DNA of 64,000 nucleotides, taken from positions 1,450-65,449 of the forward strand of contig JBBWZS010000020.1 in the NCBI GenBank assembly GCA_039649175.1. The letters run 5' to 3'. The notes below the pieces were generated by a model, which worked only from the letters and a program-made list of their open reading frames with translations, had not been told where the DNA came from and did no database searches. Position numbers and translations under genes: made by a program. This document shows positions 4,090 through 30,052 of this stretch, piece by piece. This DNA is from Acidimicrobiaceae bacterium (GTDB lineage Bacteria; Actinomycetota; Acidimicrobiia; Acidimicrobiales; AC-14). The stretch's first letter is position 1. The number at the start of each line of letters is the position of its first letter.

Positions 4090-4551
4090 TCAGGCGGGCG
4101 CCGGTGCGCCCTTGGATGCCCAGAAGTCGTTGAGGGCGGCCTGGCACTTGACGTACCACGGGATGCCGAAGGCCAGGATCCACAGCGCCGTGGCCGGGCC
4201 CACCGGGCTCTGCTGGCCGTCGCGCTCGTACATGTTCTTGATCTCGATAGGCAACAGGAACAGGTTCACGATGCTGACGAAGGCCTGGAGGACGGCCCCC
4301 ACCGCGCCCCCGATGCCCTCGCCCGTGTGGCGCTTGATGTCCTCGAAGCTGTAGTACGCCCAGTAGATCCCGTAGAGCCCGAGCGTGACGATGGACAGCA
4401 GGATCTGCTTGCCGATGCTCCGTCGGGGCCCGACCGGCCCCGCCGGCGCCCCGTAGTTTCCGACCGGGTACGGAGGTGGCTGCCCCGGGGGCATCTGCCC
4501 GGGAGGAGGCGGCGGAGGCGGCGCGGGCGGCGGGGGCGGCAACGTGGTCAT
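4090..4551 (-). CDS. Proline-rich membrane protein, DUF4234-like
   Basis: LGLYGIYWAYYSFEDIKRHTG motif, two or three TM segments, poly-Pro N-terminus. ATG at 4551 is preferred over the TTG at 4587 used in the track. Confidence 0.6.
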   Translation of the reverse strand: MTTLPPPPPAPPPPPPPGQMPPGQPPPYPVGNYGAPAGPVGPRRSIGKQILLSIVTLGLYGIYWAYYSFEDIKRHTGEGIGGAVGAVLQAFVSIVNLFLLPIEIKNMYERDGQQSPVGPATALWILAFGIPWYVKCQAALNDFWASKGAPAPA

Positions 4552-4593
4552 ACCCGGGAGTGTGGCCGATGACCGGCTCGCCGACAAGGGGCA

Positions 4594-5430
4594 TCACGAC
4601 GGGCGCAGGTGCACCACGTCGCCGGCCAGGACCCGCGTCGTGCCCGCGCCTCCCGCTGAGGTGATCAGCAGGCTTCCGTCGTCGTCCACCGCCGTGGCCA
4701 CGCCGGCACAGACCTGGCCGCCCGGGAGGGTTACCCGTACCGCCTGCCCCAGGGTGACGCAGCGCCGCCGGTAGTCGTCCATCAAGGCCCGGTGGGCCAC
4801 GGCCGCTCCTTCGCCCTCGCCGTCGCCGACCAGCCCCCGCCAGCGCTGGTCCAGCCGGTGGAGGTAGGCGTCGAGCAGCCGGTCGCGGTCGACGGGTCGG
4901 GCGGCGACGGCCTCGGCGGTGACGGCGACTGGTTGCAGGTGCGCGGGCAGCGGGCCGGGCCAGCACACGTTGAAGCCGAGGCCGACCACGACGGCGGGGC
5001 TCCCGTCGGGCGCCTCGGCCAGCACCCCGGCCAGCTTGCGCTCGTCGGGAGCCCGCTCGCCGGAGCTCCGCTCGGGCCCGACCACGAGGTCGTTGGGCCA
5101 CTTCAGGCCGGGGGTGAACCCGGCCACGTCACCACACGCGTCGGCCGCCGCCAGCGCGCAGGCGAAGGTCGCCAGCGACGACAGGCGCGGGTCGGGCGGG
5201 CGCAGCACCACCGAGACGAGCAGCGACGAGCCGGGAGGGGCTTCCCAGGTGCGGCCTCGCCGGCCCCTGCCCGCCGTCTGGTGGTCGGCCACCACCACCA
5301 CGCCCTCGGGGGCCCCGGAGCGAACCAAATCGGCGGCGACACGGTTGGTGGAGTCCACGTCGTGGTAGCGGCGGACGTCGGTGAACCGGGTGGCAGACCG
5401 GTTGGCGTCGGCCGGCGGCACGCCTGCCAC
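4594..5430 (-). CDS. birA: Biotin-[acetyl-CoA-carboxylase] ligase
   Basis: VDSTNR, ADHQTAGRGRRGRTW, KWPNDLVV, KLAGVLAE. Start set at GTG 5430, because the upstream part of track ORF 4594..6144 is antisense to the carboxylase gene. Confidence 0.8.
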   Translation of the reverse strand: MAGVPPADANRSATRFTDVRRYHDVDSTNRVAADLVRSGAPEGVVVVADHQTAGRGRRGRTWEAPPGSSLLVSVVLRPPDPRLSSLATFACALAAADACGDVAGFTPGLKWPNDLVVGPERSSGERAPDERKLAGVLAEAPDGSPAVVVGLGFNVCWPGPLPAHLQPVAVTAEAVAARPVDRDRLLDAYLHRLDQRWRGLVGDGEGEGAAVAHRALMDDYRRRCVTLGQAVRVTLPGGQVCAGVATAVDDDGSLLITSAGGAGTTRVLAGDVVHLRPS

Positions 5431-22963: not shown

Positions 22964-23112
22964 CGGTGCTCGACCTCCCGGAGTGCCCAGTTCGGGCGTT
23001 TGGCCGCCTGGGCCCGAGCGGCCTCGGAGCGGCGGCTCGGTGACGACATGCCTTTCTACCTCCCGGGCGACGCTCGGCTGTCCCTGCCCGACCGCAGGTA
23101 GGTTTGTCGGCA

Positions 23113-24408
23113 ATGCCCGACATCCCCGAGAACGGTCTGACCCGGCTGGTGCACCAGGTCACCGAGGTGGCCACCGGGCCCGACACCACGTTCGCCGACG
23201 GTCGCCTCACCGTCTCGGCCAAGGCCGCCCGCGAGTGCCTGGCCGACCCCGCCCTGGCTCACGTCGAGGTGACGTGGGCCTCCCCGGGCCAGTCGGTGCG
23301 CATCGTGAAGGTCCTCGACGCCGTCGAACCGAGGACCAAAGGGGCAGGTGGGGGTGGCATCTTCGCCGGCTTCGTCGGCCCCGACCGGGTCCAGGGCCGG
23401 GGATCCACGCACGTGCTGCGGGGGGCGGCGGTCGTGGTCGCCGGGTTCCTGCCCCGGGCCCAGGAAGCGGTGGTCGAGATGTCGGGCCCGGCGGCGGCCC
23501 TGTCACCCCTTGGCGCCACCCACAACCTGGTGGTCGAGTTCACCCCGGCCGAGGATGCTCCCTGGGAGGACGTCGACCGAGCCCTGCGCGGAGGCGCGTT
23601 GCGCCTGGCCGTGCATCTGGCCGATGCCGCCCTCGACACCCCGCCCGATGCCGAGGAGTGGCTGCCCGCCCCCACTCCTCCCACCGGCGGCGGCGGCCGG
23701 TACCGGGTGGGTGCCATCACCAACCTCCAGACCCAGGGCACCTTCAAGGACGTCTTCGTCTACGGCCGCAGCTTCTCGGGGGGCCTGCCCACCCTGATCG
23801 ACCCCGGCGACCTCGACGACGGGGCCGTGGTGAGCGGCCAGTTCGGGCACCCGTCGCTCAAGAACCCCACCTTCATGCATCAGAACCACCCCGTCGTCGC
23901 CGCCCTGCGGGCCCGCCACGGCGTCGACGTCGACTTCGCCGGCGTGGTGATCTCCCCCGAGCCGGTGGTCGCCAGCCAGAAGGAGTTGGTCTCGGCCCAT
24001 GCCGCCCGCCTGTGCGCGGCGGCGGGCTGGGACGCGGCCATCGTCACCAAGGAAGGCGGCGGTAACGCCGACGGCGACGTGGCCCTCAAGATGGACGCCT
24101 TGGAAGACGCCGGGGTGATGGCCGTGGGCCTGTTCGCGGAGATGGCGGGGCCCGACGGCACCGGACCACCCATCGTCGTGCCCCCGGAGCGGGCGACGGC
24201 CATGGTGAGCACCGGCAACTACGACGAGCGCCTGGTGCTGCCTGCCGTCGAGCGGGCCCTCGGAGGCGACGCGGTGGCCCTGGTCGACCGTCCTGCCACC
24301 GACGAGCTGCAGCTGCCGATCGCCGTGGTCTACTGCGCCCTGAGCCCCCTGGGCTGGGGCCACCTCACCTGCGCGCCCGAGGTCGGGACAGAGGTGTTGT
24401 CGGCATGA
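23113..24408 (+). CDS. Glycine/sarcosine/betaine reductase component B substrate-binding subunit (GrdE/GrdG/GrdI family)
   Basis: SPGQSVRIVKVLDAVEPRTKGAGGGGIF, GSTHVLRGAAVV, VEMSGPAA, TNLQTQGTFKDVFVYG, PTLIDPGDLDDGAVVSGQF-GHPSLKNPTFMHQNHPVV, IVTKEGGGN. ATG 23113; the track uses TTG 23104. Confidence 0.8.
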   Translation: MPDIPENGLTRLVHQVTEVATGPDTTFADGRLTVSAKAARECLADPALAHVEVTWASPGQSVRIVKVLDAVEPRTKGAGGGGIFAGFVGPDRVQGRGSTHVLRGAAVVVAGFLPRAQEAVVEMSGPAAALSPLGATHNLVVEFTPAEDAPWEDVDRALRGGALRLAVHLADAALDTPPDAEEWLPAPTPPTGGGGRYRVGAITNLQTQGTFKDVFVYGRSFSGGLPTLIDPGDLDDGAVVSGQFGHPSLKNPTFMHQNHPVVAALRARHGVDVDFAGVVISPEPVVASQKELVSAHAARLCAAAGWDAAIVTKEGGGNADGDVALKMDALEDAGVMAVGLFAEMAGPDGTGPPIVVPPERATAMVSTGNYDERLVLPAVERALGGDAVALVDRPATDELQLPIAVVYCALSPLGWGHLTCAPEVGTEVLSA

Positions 24409-25697
24409 GCCGGGTCGTGCACTACATCAACCAGTTCTTCGCCGGCGTGGGCGGCGAGGACTCGGCCGGCACCCCACCCACGACCCGCCCCGAAGCGGTC
24501 GGACCGGGCCGGCGCCTGGCCCAGCTCATCGGCCCCGACCACGAGGTCGTGGCCACCGTCTTCTGTGGCGACGACCACGCCTCCGGTGACCCGGCGGCCA
24601 TCGCCGAGATCATCGACCTCGTCCGCGCCGCCGAGCCCGACCTGGTGGTGGCCGGGCCCGCCTTCACCAGCGGCCGCTACGGCCTGGCCTGCGCCCGGGT
24701 GGCGGCCGCCGCCACCGCCGCCGGGATCCCCGTCATCGCCTCCATGCACCCCGACAACCCCGGCCTCGACGAGGCGGGCGGCGCTCCCGTCGTGGCCAGC
24801 GGCGAGGTGGCCCGCCAGATGGGGCCGTCACTCGACAGGCTGGCTGCCGCCGTGCGCCGGATGCTGGCAGGCGAGACGCTCACCGCCGACGACGGTCGCA
24901 TCGGCGCCGTGCCCCGCCGGTCACGGGTGGCCACCAGCGATGCCGCCAGCCGGGCCGTCGACCTGGTGCTGGCCCGCCTGGGGGGCGACGCCGCCGCCAC
25001 CGAGGTGCCCCTGCCCCGGTTCGACCACGTCACCCCGGCGGCGCCGGTCGCAGACCTGGCCACCGCCACGCTCGCCCTGGTCACCGAGTCGGCCCTGGTG
25101 CCCGACGACAATCCCGACCACCTCGAGTCGGCCCGGGCCACCAAGTGGTTGCGCTACCCCCTCGACGGCCGTGACTCGCTCACGCCCGGCGAGTGGCGCT
25201 CCGTGCACGGCGGCTTCTCGACGGTGTGGGCCAACGAGGACCCCCACCGCCTCCTGCCCCTCGACGTGGCCCGCCGCCTCGAAGGCGAGGGCCTCATCGG
25301 CAGCCTGTACCCGGCCTACCTCGTGACCGCCGGCAACGGCACGTCGGTGGGCAACGCCCGGCGCTTCGGTATCGAGTGGGCCGCCGACCTGCGCCACTCC
25401 GAGGTCCGGGCCGCCATCCTCACCGCTACCTGAGGCACCGGCACGCGTTGCGGGGCAACGCTGGCAAAAGAGCTCGAACGGGCAGGCATCCCCACCGCCT
25501 TGCTGTGCAACCTGGTGTCGATCGCCCAGCGGGTGGGTGCACCGCGCATCGTGCCCACCAGGGGCATCCCCTACCCCACCGGCGACCCGTCCCTCACCAA
25601 GGCCGACGAGAACGCCTGGCGGCTGCGCCTGGTCAAGACCGCCCTGGGGGCCCTGGCCACCCCGGTGAAGCAGCCCACCGTGTTCGAAGTGGCGTAA
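24405..25697 (+). CDS. Glycine/sarcosine/betaine reductase selenoprotein B family (GrdB/GrdF/GrdH), TGA at 25431-25433 read as Sec
   Basis: ATGA overlap with the upstream gene. MSRVVHYINQFFAGVGGED. Track ORFs 24405..25433 and 25500..25697 are in the same frame through ...AAILTAT-U-GTGTRCGATLAKELERAGIP, the classical GrdB 'LT(S/A)T-U-GTCTRCGAT' site. Confidence 0.85.
25443..25463 (+). promoter_or_regulatory. SECIS-like hairpin 9 nt downstream of the grdB-like UGA
   Basis: cagcgttg-cgggg-caacgctg: 8-bp stem with a 5-nt G-rich loop. Confidence 0.5.
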
Positions 25698-25724: not shown

Positions 25725-27218
25725 ATGACCGATCGTGCTGTGATCAGCGGGGCCTCCCAGGTGCTGGCCCACGTCCCCGGGCTGGCCCGTCACGGGTCCA
25801 AGCCCCGGCGGGAGCTGGCCAAAGACGAAGGCGTGCAGAAGGCGTTCCTGGCCGCCCTGCGCAGCACCGGCGAGGCGGTGGCCTACGCGCCCCACCAGGC
25901 GTGGCTGGGGGCCCTCCACCCCCGTGACCTCCCCGAACGGCCTTGGGCCCGCCGGCCCGGGCAGAGCCCGGGAGGCAGTGGCGGCGTCGGCCAGGGAGCG
26001 GCCGAGGCCTCGGCCGGCGGGCCCGACGGCACCATGGTGGGCGAGGAGGAGTTCCTCGGGCTGCTGGCCGTGGTCGACGAGTTCGGCCTCATCACCCTCG
26101 ACCCCGAGGCCGCCGACCGGTCCGCCGCCGCCCTGGCCGCCCACCCCCTGGCCAAGGCCCTCGACCTCGACCTCATCGACCGGGCGCGCGGCGACGCCGG
26201 GAAGGTGGCAGCCGAAGACGGCTCCCTGCCCCTGCACGTCGGTGCCGACCGCCTGGTCGGCGCCGTCCGGGGTGCCCAGGCCGACGACGAGTCGCTGTCG
26301 GCCCACGTCCTGCTCGAGAACCTGGCCTCCAAGGCCACCGCCACCCTGGCCCTGCTCCACCTGCTGGCCGCCGGTGACGTCGACCCGACGTCGATCGACT
26401 ACGTGCTGTCCTGCGGCGAGGAGGCCATCGGCGACCGCTACCAGCGGGGGGGCGGCAACCTGGCCAAGGCCGTCGCCCAGGCGGCCGGGCTCACCGAGGC
26501 GTCGGGCGCCGACATCAAGAACTTCTGCGCCGCCCCGGTGCCCGCCCTGGTGATGGCGTCGGCCCTGGTGGCGTCCGGGGTCTTCCGCCGGGTGGCAGTC
26601 GTGGCCGGGGGATCGCTGCCCAAGCTGGGCATGAAGTTCCAGGGTCACCTGTCCCACGACCTGCCCGTGCTCGAAGACGTCCTCGGCGGCACCGCCGCCG
26701 TCATCGAGGCCGACGACGGCCGCTCGCCCATCGTCCGGCTCGACGCCGTGGGCCGCCACCGGGTGGCCGCCGGCGGGTCGGCCCCCCAGATCATGGAGGC
26801 CCTCGCCGTCGAGCCGCTGGAACGGGTCGGCCTGGCCATGACCGACGTCGACGACTTCGCCACCGAGCTGCACAATCCCGAGATCACCGAGCCCCAGGGC
26901 TCGGGCGACGTGGCCGCCCGCAACTACCGCACCATGGCCGCCCTGGCCGTGCGCCGGGGCGACCTCGAGCGCGACGACCTCGCCCGCTTCGTCACCGAGC
27001 GGGGCATGCCCGGGTTCGCCCCCACCCAGGGGCACCTGGCATCGGCGCTGTGCTACCTGCCCCACGCCCTGCGTCGACTGACCGCCGGGGACGCAGGTAG
27101 GGTCTGCCTCGTCGCCAAGGGAAGCCTGTTTCTCGGACGGATGTGCCAGCTTTCCGACGGCATGAGCATGCTGCTGGAGCGCAACCCGGCCGCCGAATCG
27201 CAGGGGAGGGCGACATGA
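25725..27218 (+). CDS. grdC: Glycine reductase complex component C, beta subunit-like (GrdC)
   Basis: The N-terminus AVISGASQVLAHVPGLARHGS...AYAPHQAWLGAL resembles my recollection of the GrdC N-terminus. Thiolase-like core with NFCAAP. 497 aa. Confidence 0.7.
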   Translation: MTDRAVISGASQVLAHVPGLARHGSKPRRELAKDEGVQKAFLAALRSTGEAVAYAPHQAWLGALHPRDLPERPWARRPGQSPGGSGGVGQGAAEASAGGPDGTMVGEEEFLGLLAVVDEFGLITLDPEAADRSAAALAAHPLAKALDLDLIDRARGDAGKVAAEDGSLPLHVGADRLVGAVRGAQADDESLSAHVLLENLASKATATLALLHLLAAGDVDPTSIDYVLSCGEEAIGDRYQRGGGNLAKAVAQAAGLTEASGADIKNFCAAPVPALVMASALVASGVFRRVAVVAGGSLPKLGMKFQGHLSHDLPVLEDVLGGTAAVIEADDGRSPIVRLDAVGRHRVAAGGSAPQIMEALAVEPLERVGLAMTDVDDFATELHNPEITEPQGSGDVAARNYRTMAALAVRRGDLERDDLARFVTERGMPGFAPTQGHLASALCYLPHALRRLTAGDAGRVCLVAKGSLFLGRMCQLSDGMSMLLERNPAAESQGRAT

Positions 27219-27556
27219 CCACCGTCACCGAGGTCACCAAGGACACCTTCGAAGACCTCACCGCCGAGGGCACCGTCCTCATCGACGTCTGGGGCCCGGC
27301 GTGCGTGCCCTGTGTGGCCCTGACCCCCCACGTCGAGCGCCTGGCCGAGCAGCGACCCGACCTCCAGGTCCTCAAGTTGGAGGCGCCCAAGAACCGGCGG
27401 CTGTGCATCGACATGAAGGTCATGGGCATGCCGGCGTTCCTGCTGTTCCGGGACGGCGCCGAGGTGGCCCGGCTCTCCGACCCCGAGCTCACGCCCGAAG
27501 CTCTCACGTCCTGGCTCGACACCACGCTCGAGACCCTGAACCCCGAAGGGGGGTAA
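27215..27556 (+). CDS. trxA: Thioredoxin with a W-G-P-A-C-V-P-C active site
   Basis: ATGA overlap with grdC and a GGGGAGGG RBS. LIDVWGPACVPCVALTPHVERLA...MPAFLLF. The CVPC redox motif is the one recalled for the Grd-associated thioredoxins of Eubacterium acidaminophilum and Clostridium species. Confidence 0.85.
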   Translation: MTTVTEVTKDTFEDLTAEGTVLIDVWGPACVPCVALTPHVERLAEQRPDLQVLKLEAPKNRRLCIDMKVMGMPAFLLFRDGAEVARLSDPELTPEALTSWLDTTLETLNPEGG

Positions 27557-27562
27557 CACACC

Positions 27563-28048
27563 ATGTTGAAAGACCGTCTGGTCATCGCCCTGGGTGAACG
27601 CGACGGCATCTCCGGCCCGTCCATCGAGGCCTGCGTCCGGGCTGCGGGAGGCAAAGTGGTCTTCGGGGCCACCGAGTGCTTCGTCTGAACCGCAGCCGGA
27701 GCCATGGACCTGCACAGCCAGGAGGCGATTCTCCGCCTGGTGGGTGAGCACGGCCCGCAGAACCTGATGGTGATCCTGGGCGCTCCCGATCCCGAGAGCG
27801 CAGAGATCGCCGCAGAGACTGTGGTGCTGGGCGACCCGTCGTACGCAGGACCATTGGCCGGGGCCCAGTTGGGCCTCGACGTGTACCACGTCCTCGAAGA
27901 CGCCATAAAGGCCGACGTGCCCGACGACGTCTGGGAGGAACAGATCGGCGTGATGGCCGATGTCCTCGACGGCCCTGGTGTGGCCACCGCGGTGGCCGCC
28001 ATGCGCGCCCAGGCACCCGACTCACCGGAGGCACCCGCCACCGCCTGA
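27563..28048 (+). CDS. grdA: Glycine/sarcosine/betaine reductase complex selenoprotein A, TGA at 27686-27688 read as Sec
   Basis: Hand translation: MLKDRLVIALGERDGISGPSIEACVRAAGGKVVFGATECFV-U-TAAGAMDLHSQEAILRLVGEHGPQNLMVILGAPDPESAEIAAETVVLGDPSYAGPLAGAQLGLDVYHV. This matches the GrdA signature CFVUTAAGAMD. The track shows only the post-TGA part (27704..28048). Confidence 0.9.
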
Positions 28049-28060
28049 CCGCTGCGCCAC

Positions 28061-28088
28061 GCGGGGACCGCCGGTCAGCGGTCCCCGC
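28061..28088. terminator. Hairpin between convergent grdA and the LLM gene
   Basis: gcggggaccgc-cggtca-gcggtccccgc: 11-bp perfect stem. The loop contains the stop codon of the minus-strand LLM gene. Confidence 0.5.
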
Positions 28089-29064
28089 CGGCGATGGCCG
28101 GCAACACCTCTTTGTCGTAGAAGCGCAGGAAGCCGTCCTGGTCCGGCCCGATCTGGTGGACCAGGATCTGGCTGTACCCGGCGGCTGCGAACGAGGCGAT
28201 GAGCTCGAGGTGACGGGCCGGGTCGGGCCCGAGGGCGACGGTGCCGACCATGTCGTCCGGTCGGGCCAGGGCGAGCACCCGGGCGAAGTCCTTCGGGTGG
28301 GCCAGCTCGGTCAGGGCCGACCCCTTCAGGGCCCCGTTCGGCCACCAGCGCGCCGCGGTGCGGCGGGCCTCGTCATCGCTGGCGGCCCAACACACGTGAA
28401 CCTGGGCAACACGCGGCTTGCCCGCCCCGCCCGCTCCCTCGAAGGTCTCCACGTGGCGGCTGGAGGGCGTGACCCCGAAGTAGCCGTCGCCGATGCGCCC
28501 GGCGAGGGCGGCACTGGCCTTCGACGAGCCGGCGACCACGATCGACGGTGGTCGTCGCGGCAGGGTGAACAGCTGGGCCTGCTCCACCGTGTAGTGGGTG
28601 CCCCGGTGGTCGACGGTGCCGCCCTCCCACAGCCGGCGGATGACGCCGACCGCCTCCTCCAGCATCTCCCGGCGCTCGTCGGGGCGGGGCCAGCGGGCGC
28701 CGGTGACGTGCTCGTTGAGCCGTTCCCCGGTGCCGACGCCGAGGAAGAAGCGGCCGTCGCAGAGCACGGCCACGGTGGCGGCGGCGTGGGCGATGATGGC
28801 GGGGTGCACGCGGATCAGGGGGGCGGTGACGCCGGTGCCGATGCGGAGCTGCTCGGTGGCCTGGGCGATGGCACCCAGCACCGACCACACGAACGGGCTC
28901 TGACCCTGCTCGGGCACCCACGGGTGGAAGTGGTCGGAGATGCCCGCCAGTCGGAAGCCGATCTCCTCGGCTCGTGCCGCGTTGCGCACCAGCGCCTTGG
29001 GGTCGTGCTCCTCGCACGACAGCCAGTACCCGAGCTCGAGGAGCGGGCGGGCTGCGTCAGCCAC
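28075..29064 (-). CDS. Luciferase-like (LLM class) F420-dependent oxidoreductase, G6PDH-related subfamily
   Basis: LELGYWLSCEEHDPKALVRNAARAEEIGF...ISDHFHPWVPEQGQSPFVWSVLGAIA, GRFFLGVGTGERLNEHV. GTG 29064 overlaps the upstream gene's stop by 8 nt. Confidence 0.8.
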   Translation of the reverse strand: MADAARPLLELGYWLSCEEHDPKALVRNAARAEEIGFRLAGISDHFHPWVPEQGQSPFVWSVLGAIAQATEQLRIGTGVTAPLIRVHPAIIAHAAATVAVLCDGRFFLGVGTGERLNEHVTGARWPRPDERREMLEEAVGVIRRLWEGGTVDHRGTHYTVEQAQLFTLPRRPPSIVVAGSSKASAALAGRIGDGYFGVTPSSRHVETFEGAGGAGKPRVAQVHVCWAASDDEARRTAARWWPNGALKGSALTELAHPKDFARVLALARPDDMVGTVALGPDPARHLELIASFAAAGYSQILVHQIGPDQDGFLRFYDKEVLPAIAGGDR

Positions 29065-29812
29065 CGCCGGTCTCCGCCGCGGCGTGGATCGCGTCGGGGC
29101 GGGCCACACCGACGAGGCGACCGGCCAGGGTCGTCACCACCACCCACGGGGCGGGGCTGTGCGCCAGGTTGGCTGACATCTCCTCGGCGCTCACGTGGGG
29201 CCGGTAGGTGCTGGGCCCCTCCTGCATGACCTCGGCGATGGTGCGGCTGTCCTCCATGCCCAGGGCTTCGGCCCGCACCAGGCCCAGCACCACCCGCTCC
29301 GACGGCGCCGTCACCAGGGCCAGCTCCCACCCGTCGACGCGCGCGCGCACGGCCGACACCTGTTCGTCGAGCGTGCAGGTGGGAACGGTCGCATCGGCCA
29401 GGCTCGACAGTCGGGGCTGATCGGCCAGCGTGCCCTCGAAAGGAAGACCGTCGCCGATCCACTCCATCTTCGAGCCCACGTAGTCGTAGACCTCGGCGAA
29501 CCCCAGGCTCTCGAGCCGCCACGCGGCTCGTGGGCTCATGTCTCAGAGCGAGTCGTAGCAGTAGACGATCACCGGCCGGCTCTGGTCGAGGCGTTCGGGC
29601 GCCAGATCGGCCAGCTCGGTGAGCGGCACGTGCACGGCGCCGGTGATGTGGGACTCGTCCCACTCGGCTTTGGGCATGACGTCGACCAGTTGGGCGCCGG
29701 TGCCCATCAGGCGCTGGACTTCGTGGCGGTCGATCTCGGTGGGCACGAGCAACTCCTTGGCAGTGGCGCAACGGGCGCCCGTACTCCCCTTCCCAGATCG
29801 GCCGTGGCTCAT
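29057..29812 (-). CDS. Rhodanese-CBS pair protein with an in-frame TGA (29543-29545) read as selenocysteine (C-x4-U motif)
   Basis: Track ORFs 29543..30364 (C-terminal part) and 29057..29539 are in the same frame: ...LVDVMPKAEWDESHITGAVHVPL...RPVIVYCYDSL-U-DMSPRAAWRLESLGFAEVYDYVGSKMEWIGDGLPFEG. The rhodanese fold continues uninterrupted across the TGA and is followed by a CBS pair. ATG 29812. Confidence 0.65.
29512..29530 (-). promoter_or_regulatory. SECIS-like hairpin 12 nt downstream of the rhodanese UGA
   Basis: mRNA CGAGCCG-CGUGG-CGGCUCG: 7-bp perfect stem with a 5-nt loop. Confidence 0.45.
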
Positions 29813-29887
29813 AACCTTGCGGGACCGGGTAAGCATCAGGTCTGGCGTCGGTCCGGACGTCACCGACCCGCTGATCGCAGGAGGATC

Positions 29888-30052
29888 ATGAGCCAGATTG
29901 GCGACCTGTTGAGCCGGAGCAGCTGCGCCCAGTGCGGGGCGAAGGTCTTCATGACCGACGAGGGCCGGGTGGCCTGCGAGGGTTGCCAGCTCCCCACCGA
30001 AGAGTGCACCTGTGAGGGTGCCGTCAAACCCGACACCCAGCTCCCCGTCTGA
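29888..30052 (+). CDS. Small (54 aa) Cys-rich zinc-ribbon-like protein
   Basis: GGAGGA RBS 2 nt before the ATG. CAQCG-x13-CEGC-x6-CTCEG. High GC3. Its 3' end overlaps the next gene by 35-41 nt, which lowers confidence. Confidence 0.45.
   Translation: MSQIGDLLSRSSCAQCGAKVFMTDEGRVACEGCQLPTEECTCEGAVKPDTQLPV

Follow-up and report, generated by a model that had tools for sequence, protein, structure and literature searches.

Why a gene for a predicted selenoprotein of the rhodanese type should overlap one for an F420-dependent oxidoreductase, beside a glycine-reductase-like (grd) cluster, is the question raised by this locus of an Acidimicrobiaceae bacterium. The window, meaning the whole 64,000-nucleotide stretch of DNA that was analysed, carries a rhodanese–CBS gene with an in-frame UGA and, directly behind it, a gene for an LLM-class enzyme; the pair lies between grdA, towards which it converges, and a small cysteine-rich open reading frame (Table 1). 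The explanation that best accounts for the whole, with a probability of roughly 0.55, is that the two genes form a conserved, coupled operon in which the LLM enzyme would be the F420-linked partner of the rhodanese–CBS Cys/Sec protein. Taken by themselves, the architecture and the partnership of the two proteins are highly probable, and the chemistry proposed for them, a coupling of the F420 pool to the Cys/Sec site, is put forward only tentatively.

Table 1. Features of the rhodanese–LLM locus and its immediate surroundings (positions in the window).
Feature	Position	Strand	Details
Rhodanese–CBS gene, predicted selenoprotein	29812/29746–29057	minus	Maximal ORF from ATG 29812 to stop TGA 29059–29057; PF00581 60.3 bits
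Predicted Sec codon UGA (U90), in frame in the rhodanese–CBS gene	29545–29543	minus	Sole internal TGA of the frame
SECIS-like hairpin CGAGCCGC-GUG-GCGGCUCG	29512..29530	minus	Begins 12 nt past the UGA; 8-bp stem, loop GUG
Predicted F420-dependent LLM-class oxidoreductase, 329 aa	29064–28075	minus	Start GTG 29064–29062, end codon 28077–28075; TIGR03557 407.7 bits
Start/stop overlap, 8 nt, GTGGCTGA	29057..29064	minus	Read directly from the sequence; junction of the predicted translational coupling
GC-rich hairpin, 11-bp stem, no U tract	28061–28071/28078–28088	both strands	Lies where grdA and the LLM gene converge; includes the LLM stop codon
Putative inserted rhodanese–LLM cassette, approximate extent	28020..29860	no strand	Relative to relatives with the mini-ORF directly after grdA
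Cys-rich mini-ORF, 54 aa, CxxC…CxxC…CxC	29888–30052	plus	RBS AGGAGG 29879–29884; small gene of the grd-cluster neighbourhood
grdA, selenoprotein A, U42, convergent neighbour (context)	27563..28048	plus	PF04723 187.5 bits; NF040748 191.1 bits

The two genes share GTGGCTGA because the rhodanese–CBS stop codon occupies 29059–29057 and the LLM start codon 29064–29062. A rhodanese–LLM fusion protein, which long open frames had suggested, was rejected, as the two genes lie in different frames. Upstream, the true start of the rhodanese–CBS gene is more likely GTG 29746 than ATG 29812, judging from an AAGGAG 6 nt ahead of it and from homologues that open with MPxEIDRHEV. The spacer to the divergent mini-ORF would then be 141 nt, as against the original prediction's figure of about 75 bp. 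Downstream, the hairpin that was thought to end the operon in common with grdA does exist, 13 nt past the grdA stop codon, with folding energies of −36.8 kcal/mol on the plus strand (z −2.97) and −40.6 kcal/mol on the minus strand, but it has no U tract and a terminator scan made no call on it. Its stem is retained in the closest relative of the window (L006), and the loop there differs.

Gene callers in many assemblies annotate only a 160-aa ORF at this place, beginning at M92 just past the UGA. Such annotation would suit a genuine stop codon, which would split the locus into a truncated rhodanese piece and an independent 160-aa protein, with the LLM gene coupled to the latter. That reading is very improbable, given that full-length homologues with Cys (225–240 aa) are collinear through the UGA, and that 15 full-length homologues have an invariant Cys at the position aligned with U90. 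Across 80 homologous genome loci from several phyla the same codon is TGA in 72 and Cys in 8. Of 73 Sec-type loci, 54 have the 8-bp stem of the hairpin that follows the UGA and 62 have at least 7 bp of it, compared with two of eight Cys-type loci, and the synonymous-site conservation of the hairpin across phyla is tied to the TGA forms. Furthermore, the window's genome has Sec machinery, with tRNA-Sec on contig C65 and SelB on C44 (261.6 bits, cut-off 242.25), and the AlphaFold model of the protein shows a single rhodanese domain spanning the UGA site. The UGA is read as Sec because Cys stands at that position in 8 loci, the hairpin is conserved and the genome encodes tRNA-Sec and SelB; as a prediction the Sec assignment holds, and the selenoprotein reading given earlier for this gene is upheld with it.

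The same AlphaFold model (pLDDT 87) places a CBS pair after the rhodanese domain and matches rhodanese domains (3nhv, 3hix) as well as the CBS pairs of MgtE and AcuB. Pfam detects CBS domains in 15 of the 19 family members aligned but none, at E ≤ 0.01, in the window's own protein, where the C-terminal CBS pair is supported by the model and its structural matches. Its active-site loop reads C85-YDSL-U90-DMSPR. Forms 1–5 of rhodanese-like selenoproteins have been described, including TsoB (U-x4-U) and the NF041203 'LYCAU' form, with the pattern 'UxxS' for form 1 (2026 review, PMC13188914). Like them, the window's protein has a single rhodanese domain with the predicted Sec in the active-site loop; its C-x4-U loop is spaced like the U-x4-U of TsoB, a pattern that one homologue (L082) itself carries, and U-D-M-S fits 'UxxS'. 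It differs from forms 1–5 in its predicted C-terminal CBS pair ('CBS' occurs 0 times in PMC13188914), in belonging to a family found mainly in Actinomycetota and Chloroflexota, and in its F420 partner, which is described for none of them. Scores against the curated rhodanese selenoprotein HMMs are low, at 27.5 against 115 for NF041203 and 21.7 against 805 for NF045694 (TsoB).

The second protein had been assigned to the F420-type LLM oxidoreductases of a G6PDH-related subfamily, an assignment that the family models confirm. It scores 407.7 bits with the whole-protein model TIGR03557 (F420_G6P_family; cut-off 210.4) and 172.9 bits with Pfam Bac_luciferase, compared with 286.2 for the FMN-type sister model TIGR03885, under the cut-off of 398.7. 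When it is aligned to FGD1 (3b4y), His40, Trp44 and Glu109 match conserved LLM residues, and the SDHFHPW and GTGE…NE motifs are kept. The LLM is, on this comparison, predicted to be an F420-dependent enzyme of the TIGR03557 class, with the fold and HMM family of that class, which counts FGD1, the F420-dependent hydroxymycolic acid dehydrogenase (fHMAD) and Adf among its relatives; it has no Tat signal, in contrast to fHMAD, and what marks its subclade off within TIGR03557 is genetic linkage to the rhodanese–CBS gene. An identity as FGD itself was tried and rejected, with 157 bits for TIGR03554 against a cut-off of 420 and replaced pocket residues: the phosphate-binding Lys198, Lys259 and Arg283 of FGD1 correspond to Ser, Leu and Thr, and His260 to Thr. 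A true FGD is absent from the window's genome, where the best TIGR03554 score is 197.5 against 420. Also rejected was a Sec-containing LLM, raised by a '1 TGA inside' flag on some matches; the TGA is an ordinary stop at the match end.

The capacity to make F420, on which the original prediction depended, is present in the host. Biosynthesis genes over their cut-offs are cofD (310.9 bits), cofE (259), cofG (420.7), cofH (467) and cofC (119.2), with cofG and cofH in one fused frame of 767 aa. Similarly, cofE is found in the window's own genome and in all ten other pair genomes searched. As a test of co-occurrence the presence of F420 genes is uninformative, since 380 of the 401 genomes in the class (95%) have a cofE that passes its cut-off.

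The pair recurs, too often for a chance arrangement. Besides the window's, 15 pairs were counted, all in related soil actinobacteria: 14 independent assemblies have overlapping start and stop (−4, −8, −11 or −14 nt), and in one more a 9-nt gap separates the genes. The 8-nt overlap and the two-gene operon claimed for this locus are borne out in that way, as is the position of the LLM start, since overlapping starts are conserved across the pairs; the two genes are assigned to a translationally coupled operon whose coupling is conserved. Ten of the loci carry the Sec form and five the Cys form, the latter including L020 and L116/G369, of which G369 is a one-contig genome from the same order. The claimed pairing of a selenoprotein with an F420 enzyme recurs, but it is not confined to selenoproteins, as the five Cys pairs show. 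No description of it was found in the searchable literature, as the original prediction had also stated; the sole match, Rhodococcus DTDB catabolism, concerns genes that are unlinked there.

Seen from the rhodanese side, the association is loose. The LLM gene is directly downstream at 10 of 77 judgeable rhodanese–CBS loci, with one additional partial case (L010), and a search centred on the LLM added adjacency in 4 further genomes; the other 67 judgeable loci have no LLM. Among 81 loci no downstream gene but the LLM is both recurrent and tightly coupled. A close LLM is missing altogether from genomes G004 and G005, and in L006 the LLM has been deleted in frame, leaving a 14-codon remnant behind a retained rhodanese gene. 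The rhodanese–CBS protein usually occurs without the LLM, and the partnership, as judged from these loci, is facultative and asymmetric. Seen from the LLM side, it is tight. Rhodanese–CBS also occurs in 8 of 13 genomes that have an LLM of ≥55% identity, versus 28 of 388 other genomes. The LLM tree gathers the linked LLMs in one clade (support 100/97) with 13 of 14 rows linked to rhodanese–CBS; with the three nearest rows added, 14 are linked, one has its rhodanese gene 3.7 kb away and two are unlinked, and linkage occurs in none of the 31 other LLM paralogues. The LLM evidently falls in a dedicated branch of TIGR03557 whose genes almost always come next after one for rhodanese–CBS.

The trees of the two proteins broadly agree for linked loci. 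In the rhodanese tree, linkage requires seven changes of state, of which at least four are forced, and all linked rhodaneses but one fall within a single 28-row clade. Much of the recurrence is explained by vertical inheritance of an ancestral arrangement, because most of the linked loci come from that one clade. Synteny is conserved, by the gene-neighbourhood comparison that the original prediction had called for, in a subclade that takes in Acidimicrobiia and related Actinomycetota, where the comparison indicates that the pair has been inherited as a unit. Surrounding genes are less constant. Among nine pair loci examined in detail no third gene is universal; thioredoxin-fold and DsbD_TM genes adjoin the pair in four of them (L008, L009, L020 and L031), a redox setting that favours the partnership, and a GH15-like gene recurs in three. 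Around unlinked LLM orthologues the genes vary and offer no clue to function.

Vertical inheritance gives some weight to a different account, in which the genes share a transcript but not a function, the LLM being an F420-reducing or F420-oxidising dehydrogenase for an alcohol or sugar within a stress- or redox-responsive unit whose arrangement is simply passed on. The single rhodanese clade and the congruent trees would be expected under it, as would the dispensability of the LLM, deleted in L006 and missing from G004 and G005; a genome with no true FGD could also use an FGD-like paralogue for general F420 reduction, and GH15/trehalase-like genes lie near some loci. However, the overlap has been upheld through four junction designs, in Sec and Cys forms alike and over about 50% LLM divergence, and the LLM subclade as a whole keeps its linkage to rhodanese–CBS, which none of the 31 other paralogues has. 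Moreover, a retained LLM orthologue is nearly always adjacent, and loss of adjacency usually goes with loss of the LLM. Functional independence is on these grounds rather unlikely, and an F420-linked partnership of the two proteins is preferred.

The position beside grdA invites another interpretation, that the pair serves the Grd system as an accessory, either supplying electrons in place of a missing local TrxB or delivering selenium to the two Grd selenoproteins. The pair is convergent to grdA with a hairpin common to both, four Sec codons cluster in the region, and the window has no trxB, as originally noted, the only weak match (on contig C84) falling outside it. Nevertheless, a genuine TrxB (395 bits) is encoded on contig C74, and the grd operon encodes a thioredoxin of its own. 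The pair resembles the trxA and trxB accessory genes of grd operons in adjoining grdA, but here the adjacency is not conserved and TrxB is separate. No grd gene was found in the flanking sequence examined at the other 15 pair loci; the rhodanese module stands beside grd only in the window and in L006, and L006 retains its grd and rhodanese genes with the LLM deleted. An alternative electron input near Grd, as once proposed, is not borne out by these comparisons.

Relatives that have a mini-ORF but no cassette make the history of the site clearer. Six of them (L137, L139, L140, L141, L142 and L146) have the mini-ORF directly after grdA on the same strand, and in one relative a bestrophin-like gene occupies the slot between the two. 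Homology to L140, L146, L137 and L139 stops at about 28013–28019 and restarts at 29861–29889; no flanking repeats or target-site duplication were found around the cassette. The alignments indicate that the rhodanese–LLM cassette was inserted, in this lineage, between grdA and the mini-ORF, a slot whose content varies, and that no conserved tie exists between the cassette and the glycine-reductase-like cluster. A role as Grd accessory is already largely refuted by synteny and is now a most unlikely prospect; since the grd-side position is an insertion, it should not be used for inferring Grd function.

The mini-ORF itself is best described as a real small gene. It has homologues in 12 clusters (48–55 aa) and a paralogue on contig C208, and differs from its counterpart in L006 by five synonymous and two conservative codon changes; its AGGAGG lies only 3 nt ahead of the ATG. 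The length of 54 aa, the Cys motif and the RBS given in the original prediction all stand, but its role as divergent partner of the operon does not: the product is predicted to be zinc-ribbon-like, and the gene belongs with grdA rather than with the rhodanese operon.

What the partnership might do can be proposed in outline. Production of the two proteins would be held at a constant ratio, and they would probably act together. The rhodanese–CBS protein may be a cytoplasmic thiol/selenol redox or carrier protein, in which C85 and U90 could form a selenylsulfide or hold an S, Se or metal atom because C85 occupies the canonical catalytic position and U90 lies five residues on in the same loop; its CBS pair is probably a nucleotide-sensing module. 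The LLM would be an accessory hydride-transfer enzyme that has kept the catalytic His, Trp and Glu of the FGD/fHMAD/Adf type and lost the sugar-phosphate pocket. It could couple the F420/F420H2 pool to a small-molecule hydroxyl or carbonyl, or to a (seleno)thiohemiacetal-type intermediate made or carried on the Cys/Sec site. This chemistry is without precedent because the known LLM enzymes work on small molecules, and no F420-dependent LLM is known to have a protein partner or to use S/Se centres.

The nearest organisational parallel is with BigR-type operons, the ArsR/SmtB-regulated operons of persulfide and thiol stress, which likewise place a rhodanese gene beside redox enzymes; other members of the rhodanese–CBS family neighbour ArsR/SmtB regulators, thioredoxin-fold proteins and DsbD_TM proteins. 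The pair differs from those operons in having no adjacent persulfide dioxygenase or sulfite exporter, in its predicted F420-dependent LLM partner and in an active site with a second chalcogen residue, the predicted Sec.

One further step, speculative and well short of even odds, is that a dedicated LLM branch came to serve a Cys/Sec rhodanese–CBS protein as its redox partner. That would be a new link between the deazaflavin F420 and protein-bound S/Se, for example the F420-dependent redox conversion of a (seleno)thiohemiacetal, persulfide or perselenide adduct on the C-x4-U loop, and the module would sit within the wider selenoprotein-built metal(loid)/thiol-stress systems of soil Actinomycetota. 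If the partnership is biochemical, it would join F420 redox metabolism to selenoprotein and sulfurtransferase chemistry, a connection undescribed in the searchable literature, where the rhodanese-linked LLM subclade also has no substrate or partner described. More immediately, the annotation of the rhodanese–CBS gene, routinely miscalled as a 160-aa fragment, is corrected. Actinomycetota have many F420-dependent LLM enzymes, very few of them with a known substrate; an LLM subfamily defined by its linkage to one partner gene provides a concrete handle for assigning function.

The rhodanese–CBS gene and the F420-type LLM gene behind it face a glycine-reductase-like (grd) cluster in convergent orientation, and the 8-nt overlap from which the original prediction derived an operon is present in both frames. 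Within the longer open frame, the probable start codon of the rhodanese–CBS gene is GTG 29746, with AAGGAG 6 nt ahead of it; homologues have the N-terminus MPxEIDRHEV and lengths of 225–240 aa. The hairpin claimed at the operon end is real, with an 11-bp stem at 28061–28088, and its U tract is missing.

Coordinates of the rhodanese–CBS/LLM pair and neighbouring genes in the window
Feature	Position	Strand	Remark
grdE-like	23104–24408	+	grd-like cluster
grdB-like, with Sec	24405–25697	+	grd-like cluster
grdC/DUF5940	25725–27218	+	grd-like cluster
thioredoxin	27215–27556	+	grd-like cluster
grdA, with Sec	27563–28048	+	grd-like cluster
rhodanese–CBS gene frame	ATG 29812 to TGA 29059–29057	-	one internal TGA at 29545–29543
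LLM gene	GTG 29064 to stop 28077–28075	-	329-aa protein
start/stop overlap, rhodanese–CBS/LLM	8 nt, GTGGCTGA common to both frames	-	direct sequence reading
Cys-rich mini-ORF	29888–30052	+	54 aa; LPG_synthase_TM membrane protein gene next

The in-frame UGA of the rhodanese–CBS gene is confidently predicted to be a selenocysteine codon. Database searches returned full-length homologues (225–240 aa) with a Cys aligned to the UGA in the motif YC-x4-C-D-[ML]-S-P-R-A-A, together with 160-aa fragments starting at a Met two codons past it; a fragment that starts just past a UGA is a typical selenoprotein miscall. Across 80 homologous genome loci from Actinomycetota, Chloroflexota and a few other phyla, the aligned codon is TGA in 72 and Cys in 8. 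A hairpin, CGAGCCGC-GUG-GCGGCUCG, starts 12 nt past the UGA; its 8-bp stem is complete in 54/73 Sec-type loci (≥7 bp in 62/73) and the hairpin is found in only 2/8 Cys-type loci, so synonymous positions are under constraint only in loci that encode Sec. The genome also has tRNA-Sec and SelB. The curated NCBIfam selenoprotein models did not recognise the protein, in which Pfam finds a rhodanese domain (60.3 bits). In the AlphaFold model (pLDDT 87) a single rhodanese domain is followed by a CBS pair at the C-terminus; the PDB structures matching it are single rhodanese domains and the MgtE and AcuB CBS pairs. Pfam finds CBS in 15/19 aligned family members, the window's protein giving no CBS hit at E ≤ 0.01. 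Two chalcogen residues lie five positions apart in the rhodanese loop, the modelled C85 at the end of the central β-strand and U90 directly before the active-site helix. No signal sequence is evident in this protein or in the LLM.

The LLM scores 407.7 bits on the F420-dependent LLM oxidoreductase model TIGR03557 (NCBIfam; cut-off 210.4), in line with the F420-dependent G6PDH-related subfamily to which it had been assigned. It stays under the cut-offs of true FGD (157 vs 420) and of the FMN-type sister family TIGR03885 (286 vs 398.7), and identity as an FGD was rejected. Alignment to FGD1 retains equivalents of the catalytic His, Trp and Glu, and the sugar-phosphate pocket is not kept, K198, K259, H260 and R283 being replaced by S, L, T and T. 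To our knowledge, hydride transfer between F420 and a carbon of the substrate that bears OH or =O is the reaction of all characterised LLM relatives (FGD, fHMAD and Adf). The closest solved structure (PDB 9hav, also 9haw, 9hax and 9hay; E = 3.4e-76) is titled only 'Luciferase family protein', and no mention of 9hav was found in the searchable literature. The window lies on contig C84 of a 2.68-Mb MAG that is 80% complete and, judged by its nearest relatives, an actinobacterium of Acidimicrobiales type. This genome holds three TIGR03557-like paralogues, including C80:22377-23324 and C227:1282-2235 on other contigs, and no true FGD (best TIGR03554 score 197.5 vs cut-off 420). F420 is available, since cofC, cofD and cofE, as well as cofG and cofH fused in one frame, all score above their cut-offs, as the original prediction needed; this capacity is non-discriminating, because cofE is above cut-off in 380/401 genomes of the class.

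Synteny bears the pairing out. An LLM gene lies directly downstream on the same strand in 10 of the 77 loci with enough downstream sequence (window counted), a further locus, L010, reaches the first 33 LLM codons before its contig ends, and a separate search that started from the LLM and covered 401 class genomes added four adjacent pairs and one convergent neighbour. The overlapping LLM start is likewise conserved, at −8 nt (L008, L009, L011, L017, L031), −4 nt (L010, L062), −11 nt (L028, L054) or −14 nt (L109, L111, L114, L116), and only L020 has a short gap instead. No gene other than the LLM recurs in tight coupling downstream of the rhodanese–CBS family. The rhodanese–CBS member of the pair is of the Sec form in ten loci and of the Cys form in five, which ties the LLM to the protein family rather than to selenium as such. 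We place a probability of roughly 0.9 on this pair architecture and partnership.

The association is one-sided. A tree of 48 TIGR03557-type LLMs places the rhodanese-linked proteins in one clade (support 100/97) with 13/14 rows linked, ten linked rows of the tree being so by construction as they were fetched with the rhodanese query; in the LLM-fetched sample only, 4/6 clade members and 0/~27 others are linked. With its three nearest rows the clade comprises 14 linked members, one 3.7 kb from a rhodanese gene and two unlinked; the remaining 31 paralogues, the C80 and C227 copies included, are all unlinked. Rhodanese–CBS is present in 8/13 class genomes that have an LLM at ≥55% identity vs 28/388 of the rest, a descriptive comparison only, since related genomes do not count as independent. 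Most rhodanese–CBS genes lack an LLM partner. In their tree the linked genes fall within one 28-row clade, apart from L062, and linkage there is patchy (seven changes needed, at least four forced). Among five close genomes in which the rhodanese gene is unlinked, a clade-type LLM occurs elsewhere only in G003, and two have no LLM at E ≤ 1e-30. The window's closest relative, L006, shows 90% identity in the rhodanese–CBS protein and has the same order of grd, rhodanese, mini-ORF and LPG synthase genes, and a clean in-frame deletion of 945 nt (L006:6700-6790 vs window 28075-29064) leaves 14 LLM codons, GTG GCT GAC joined to GAG GTG … CGC TGA (MAD-EVLPAIAGGDR and stop), with the terminal hairpin stem intact. 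The in-frame remnant makes the pair ancestral in that lineage and the LLM dispensable. The main rival reading, co-regulated but independent enzymes inherited vertically, is considered less likely than not.

The most economical reading is that the rhodanese–CBS protein would work as a thiol/selenol redox or carrier protein, with the linked LLM subfamily as an optional accessory that ties in F420 and whose substrate would be a small intermediate arising at the Cys/Sec site or handed over by it; this chemistry is offered tentatively, with the odds against it. Some pair loci also have thioredoxin-fold and DsbD_TM genes, and in L009:199-4066 and L008:383-5856 an apparent five-gene operon with overlapping boundaries runs from a TlpA/AhpC-TSA-like thioredoxin-fold gene through a DsbD_TM-like membrane protein and a 144-aa protein to Sec rhodanese–CBS and LLM. 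A GH15/trehalase-like glycoside hydrolase (~610–670 aa) lies within a few genes of rhodanese–CBS, with or without LLM (L008:2338-4176, L020:2723-4573, L062:6072-7913; also L038, L039 and L057).

A functional tie to Grd, as originally suggested, is not supported, as in the available sequence grd genes are near the rhodanese gene only in the window and L006. The lack of a local trxB loses its force, with TrxB on contig C74 and a thioredoxin within the grd operon. The mini-ORF is, judging by its conservation, a real small gene, with homologues of 48–55 aa in 12 clusters and five synonymous plus two conservative changes relative to L006. Rather than being a divergent element of the rhodanese operon, it belongs with grdA, which it follows by 5–72 nt on the same strand in six relatives (L137, L139, L140, L141, L142 and L146). 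The interval between grdA and the mini-ORF (window 28049-29887) is a variable slot, empty in these six; the window and L006 have the rhodanese(–LLM) cassette there, and L143:409-1519 a bestrophin-like gene. DNA homology to these relatives ends at ~28019 and resumes at ~29861–29889, and therefore a ~1.8-kb rhodanese–LLM cassette was inserted in inverse orientation; no flanking repeats were found around it. A 47-aa mini-ORF paralogue with the same Cys pattern (MTELDTILSRAVCALCG…CNGC…CDC; G000:C208:15663-15794) stands alone, with no grd or LPG-synthase gene nearby. To retain its basic N-terminus, the LPG_synthase_TM ORF can start only at GTG 30012 or 30018, overlapping the mini-ORF 3' end by 35–41 nt; in relatives the two are instead separated by 48–66 nt.

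The components of the pair are known families, and their pairing was not found in the searchable literature, in agreement with the original prediction; in the sole co-mention of F420-LLM and rhodaneses, Rhodococcus DTDB catabolism, the genes are unlinked. A 2026 selenoproteome review describes five rhodanese selenoprotein forms, none with a CBS pair or F420 partner (PMC13188914). One of the known systems, TsoB, has the motif U-x4-U (PMC13188914), the same spacing as the C-x4-U loop here, and is a fused rhodanese/DsbD selenoprotein, of which the separate rhodanese and DsbD genes in L008 and L009 are reminiscent. The Chloroflexota MAG locus L082 has TGA at both chalcogen positions (VYUHDSAUDMS) and thus U-x4-U itself.

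Sec rhodanese–CBS genes that fall outside the LLM-linked clade are often in metal(loid)-type neighbourhoods, such as those with a same-strand MerB-like lyase gene immediately upstream (L049, L055, L068, L071, L075, L080, L081; below the curated MerB cut-off), ArsR/SmtB regulators (L019, L042, L044, L055, L057, L058, L070, L075, L080, L081), MerR-like regulators (L040, L068, L076, L084, L085) or a MerA/Lpd-like flavoprotein, a pyridine-nucleotide disulfide oxidoreductase (L016, L035, L039, L057; below the curated MerA cut-off). A membrane protein of ~183 aa adjoins rhodanese–CBS in ten loci (L020, L029, L049, L050, L055, e.g. at 4342-4890, L070, L073, L081, L084, L085) and matches NF049942 'DF family (seleno)protein' (105.7 bits vs cut-off 70), so that two (seleno)protein families co-localise. 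Taken as a whole, the rhodanese–CBS family is suggested to serve organometal, metal or thiol stress.
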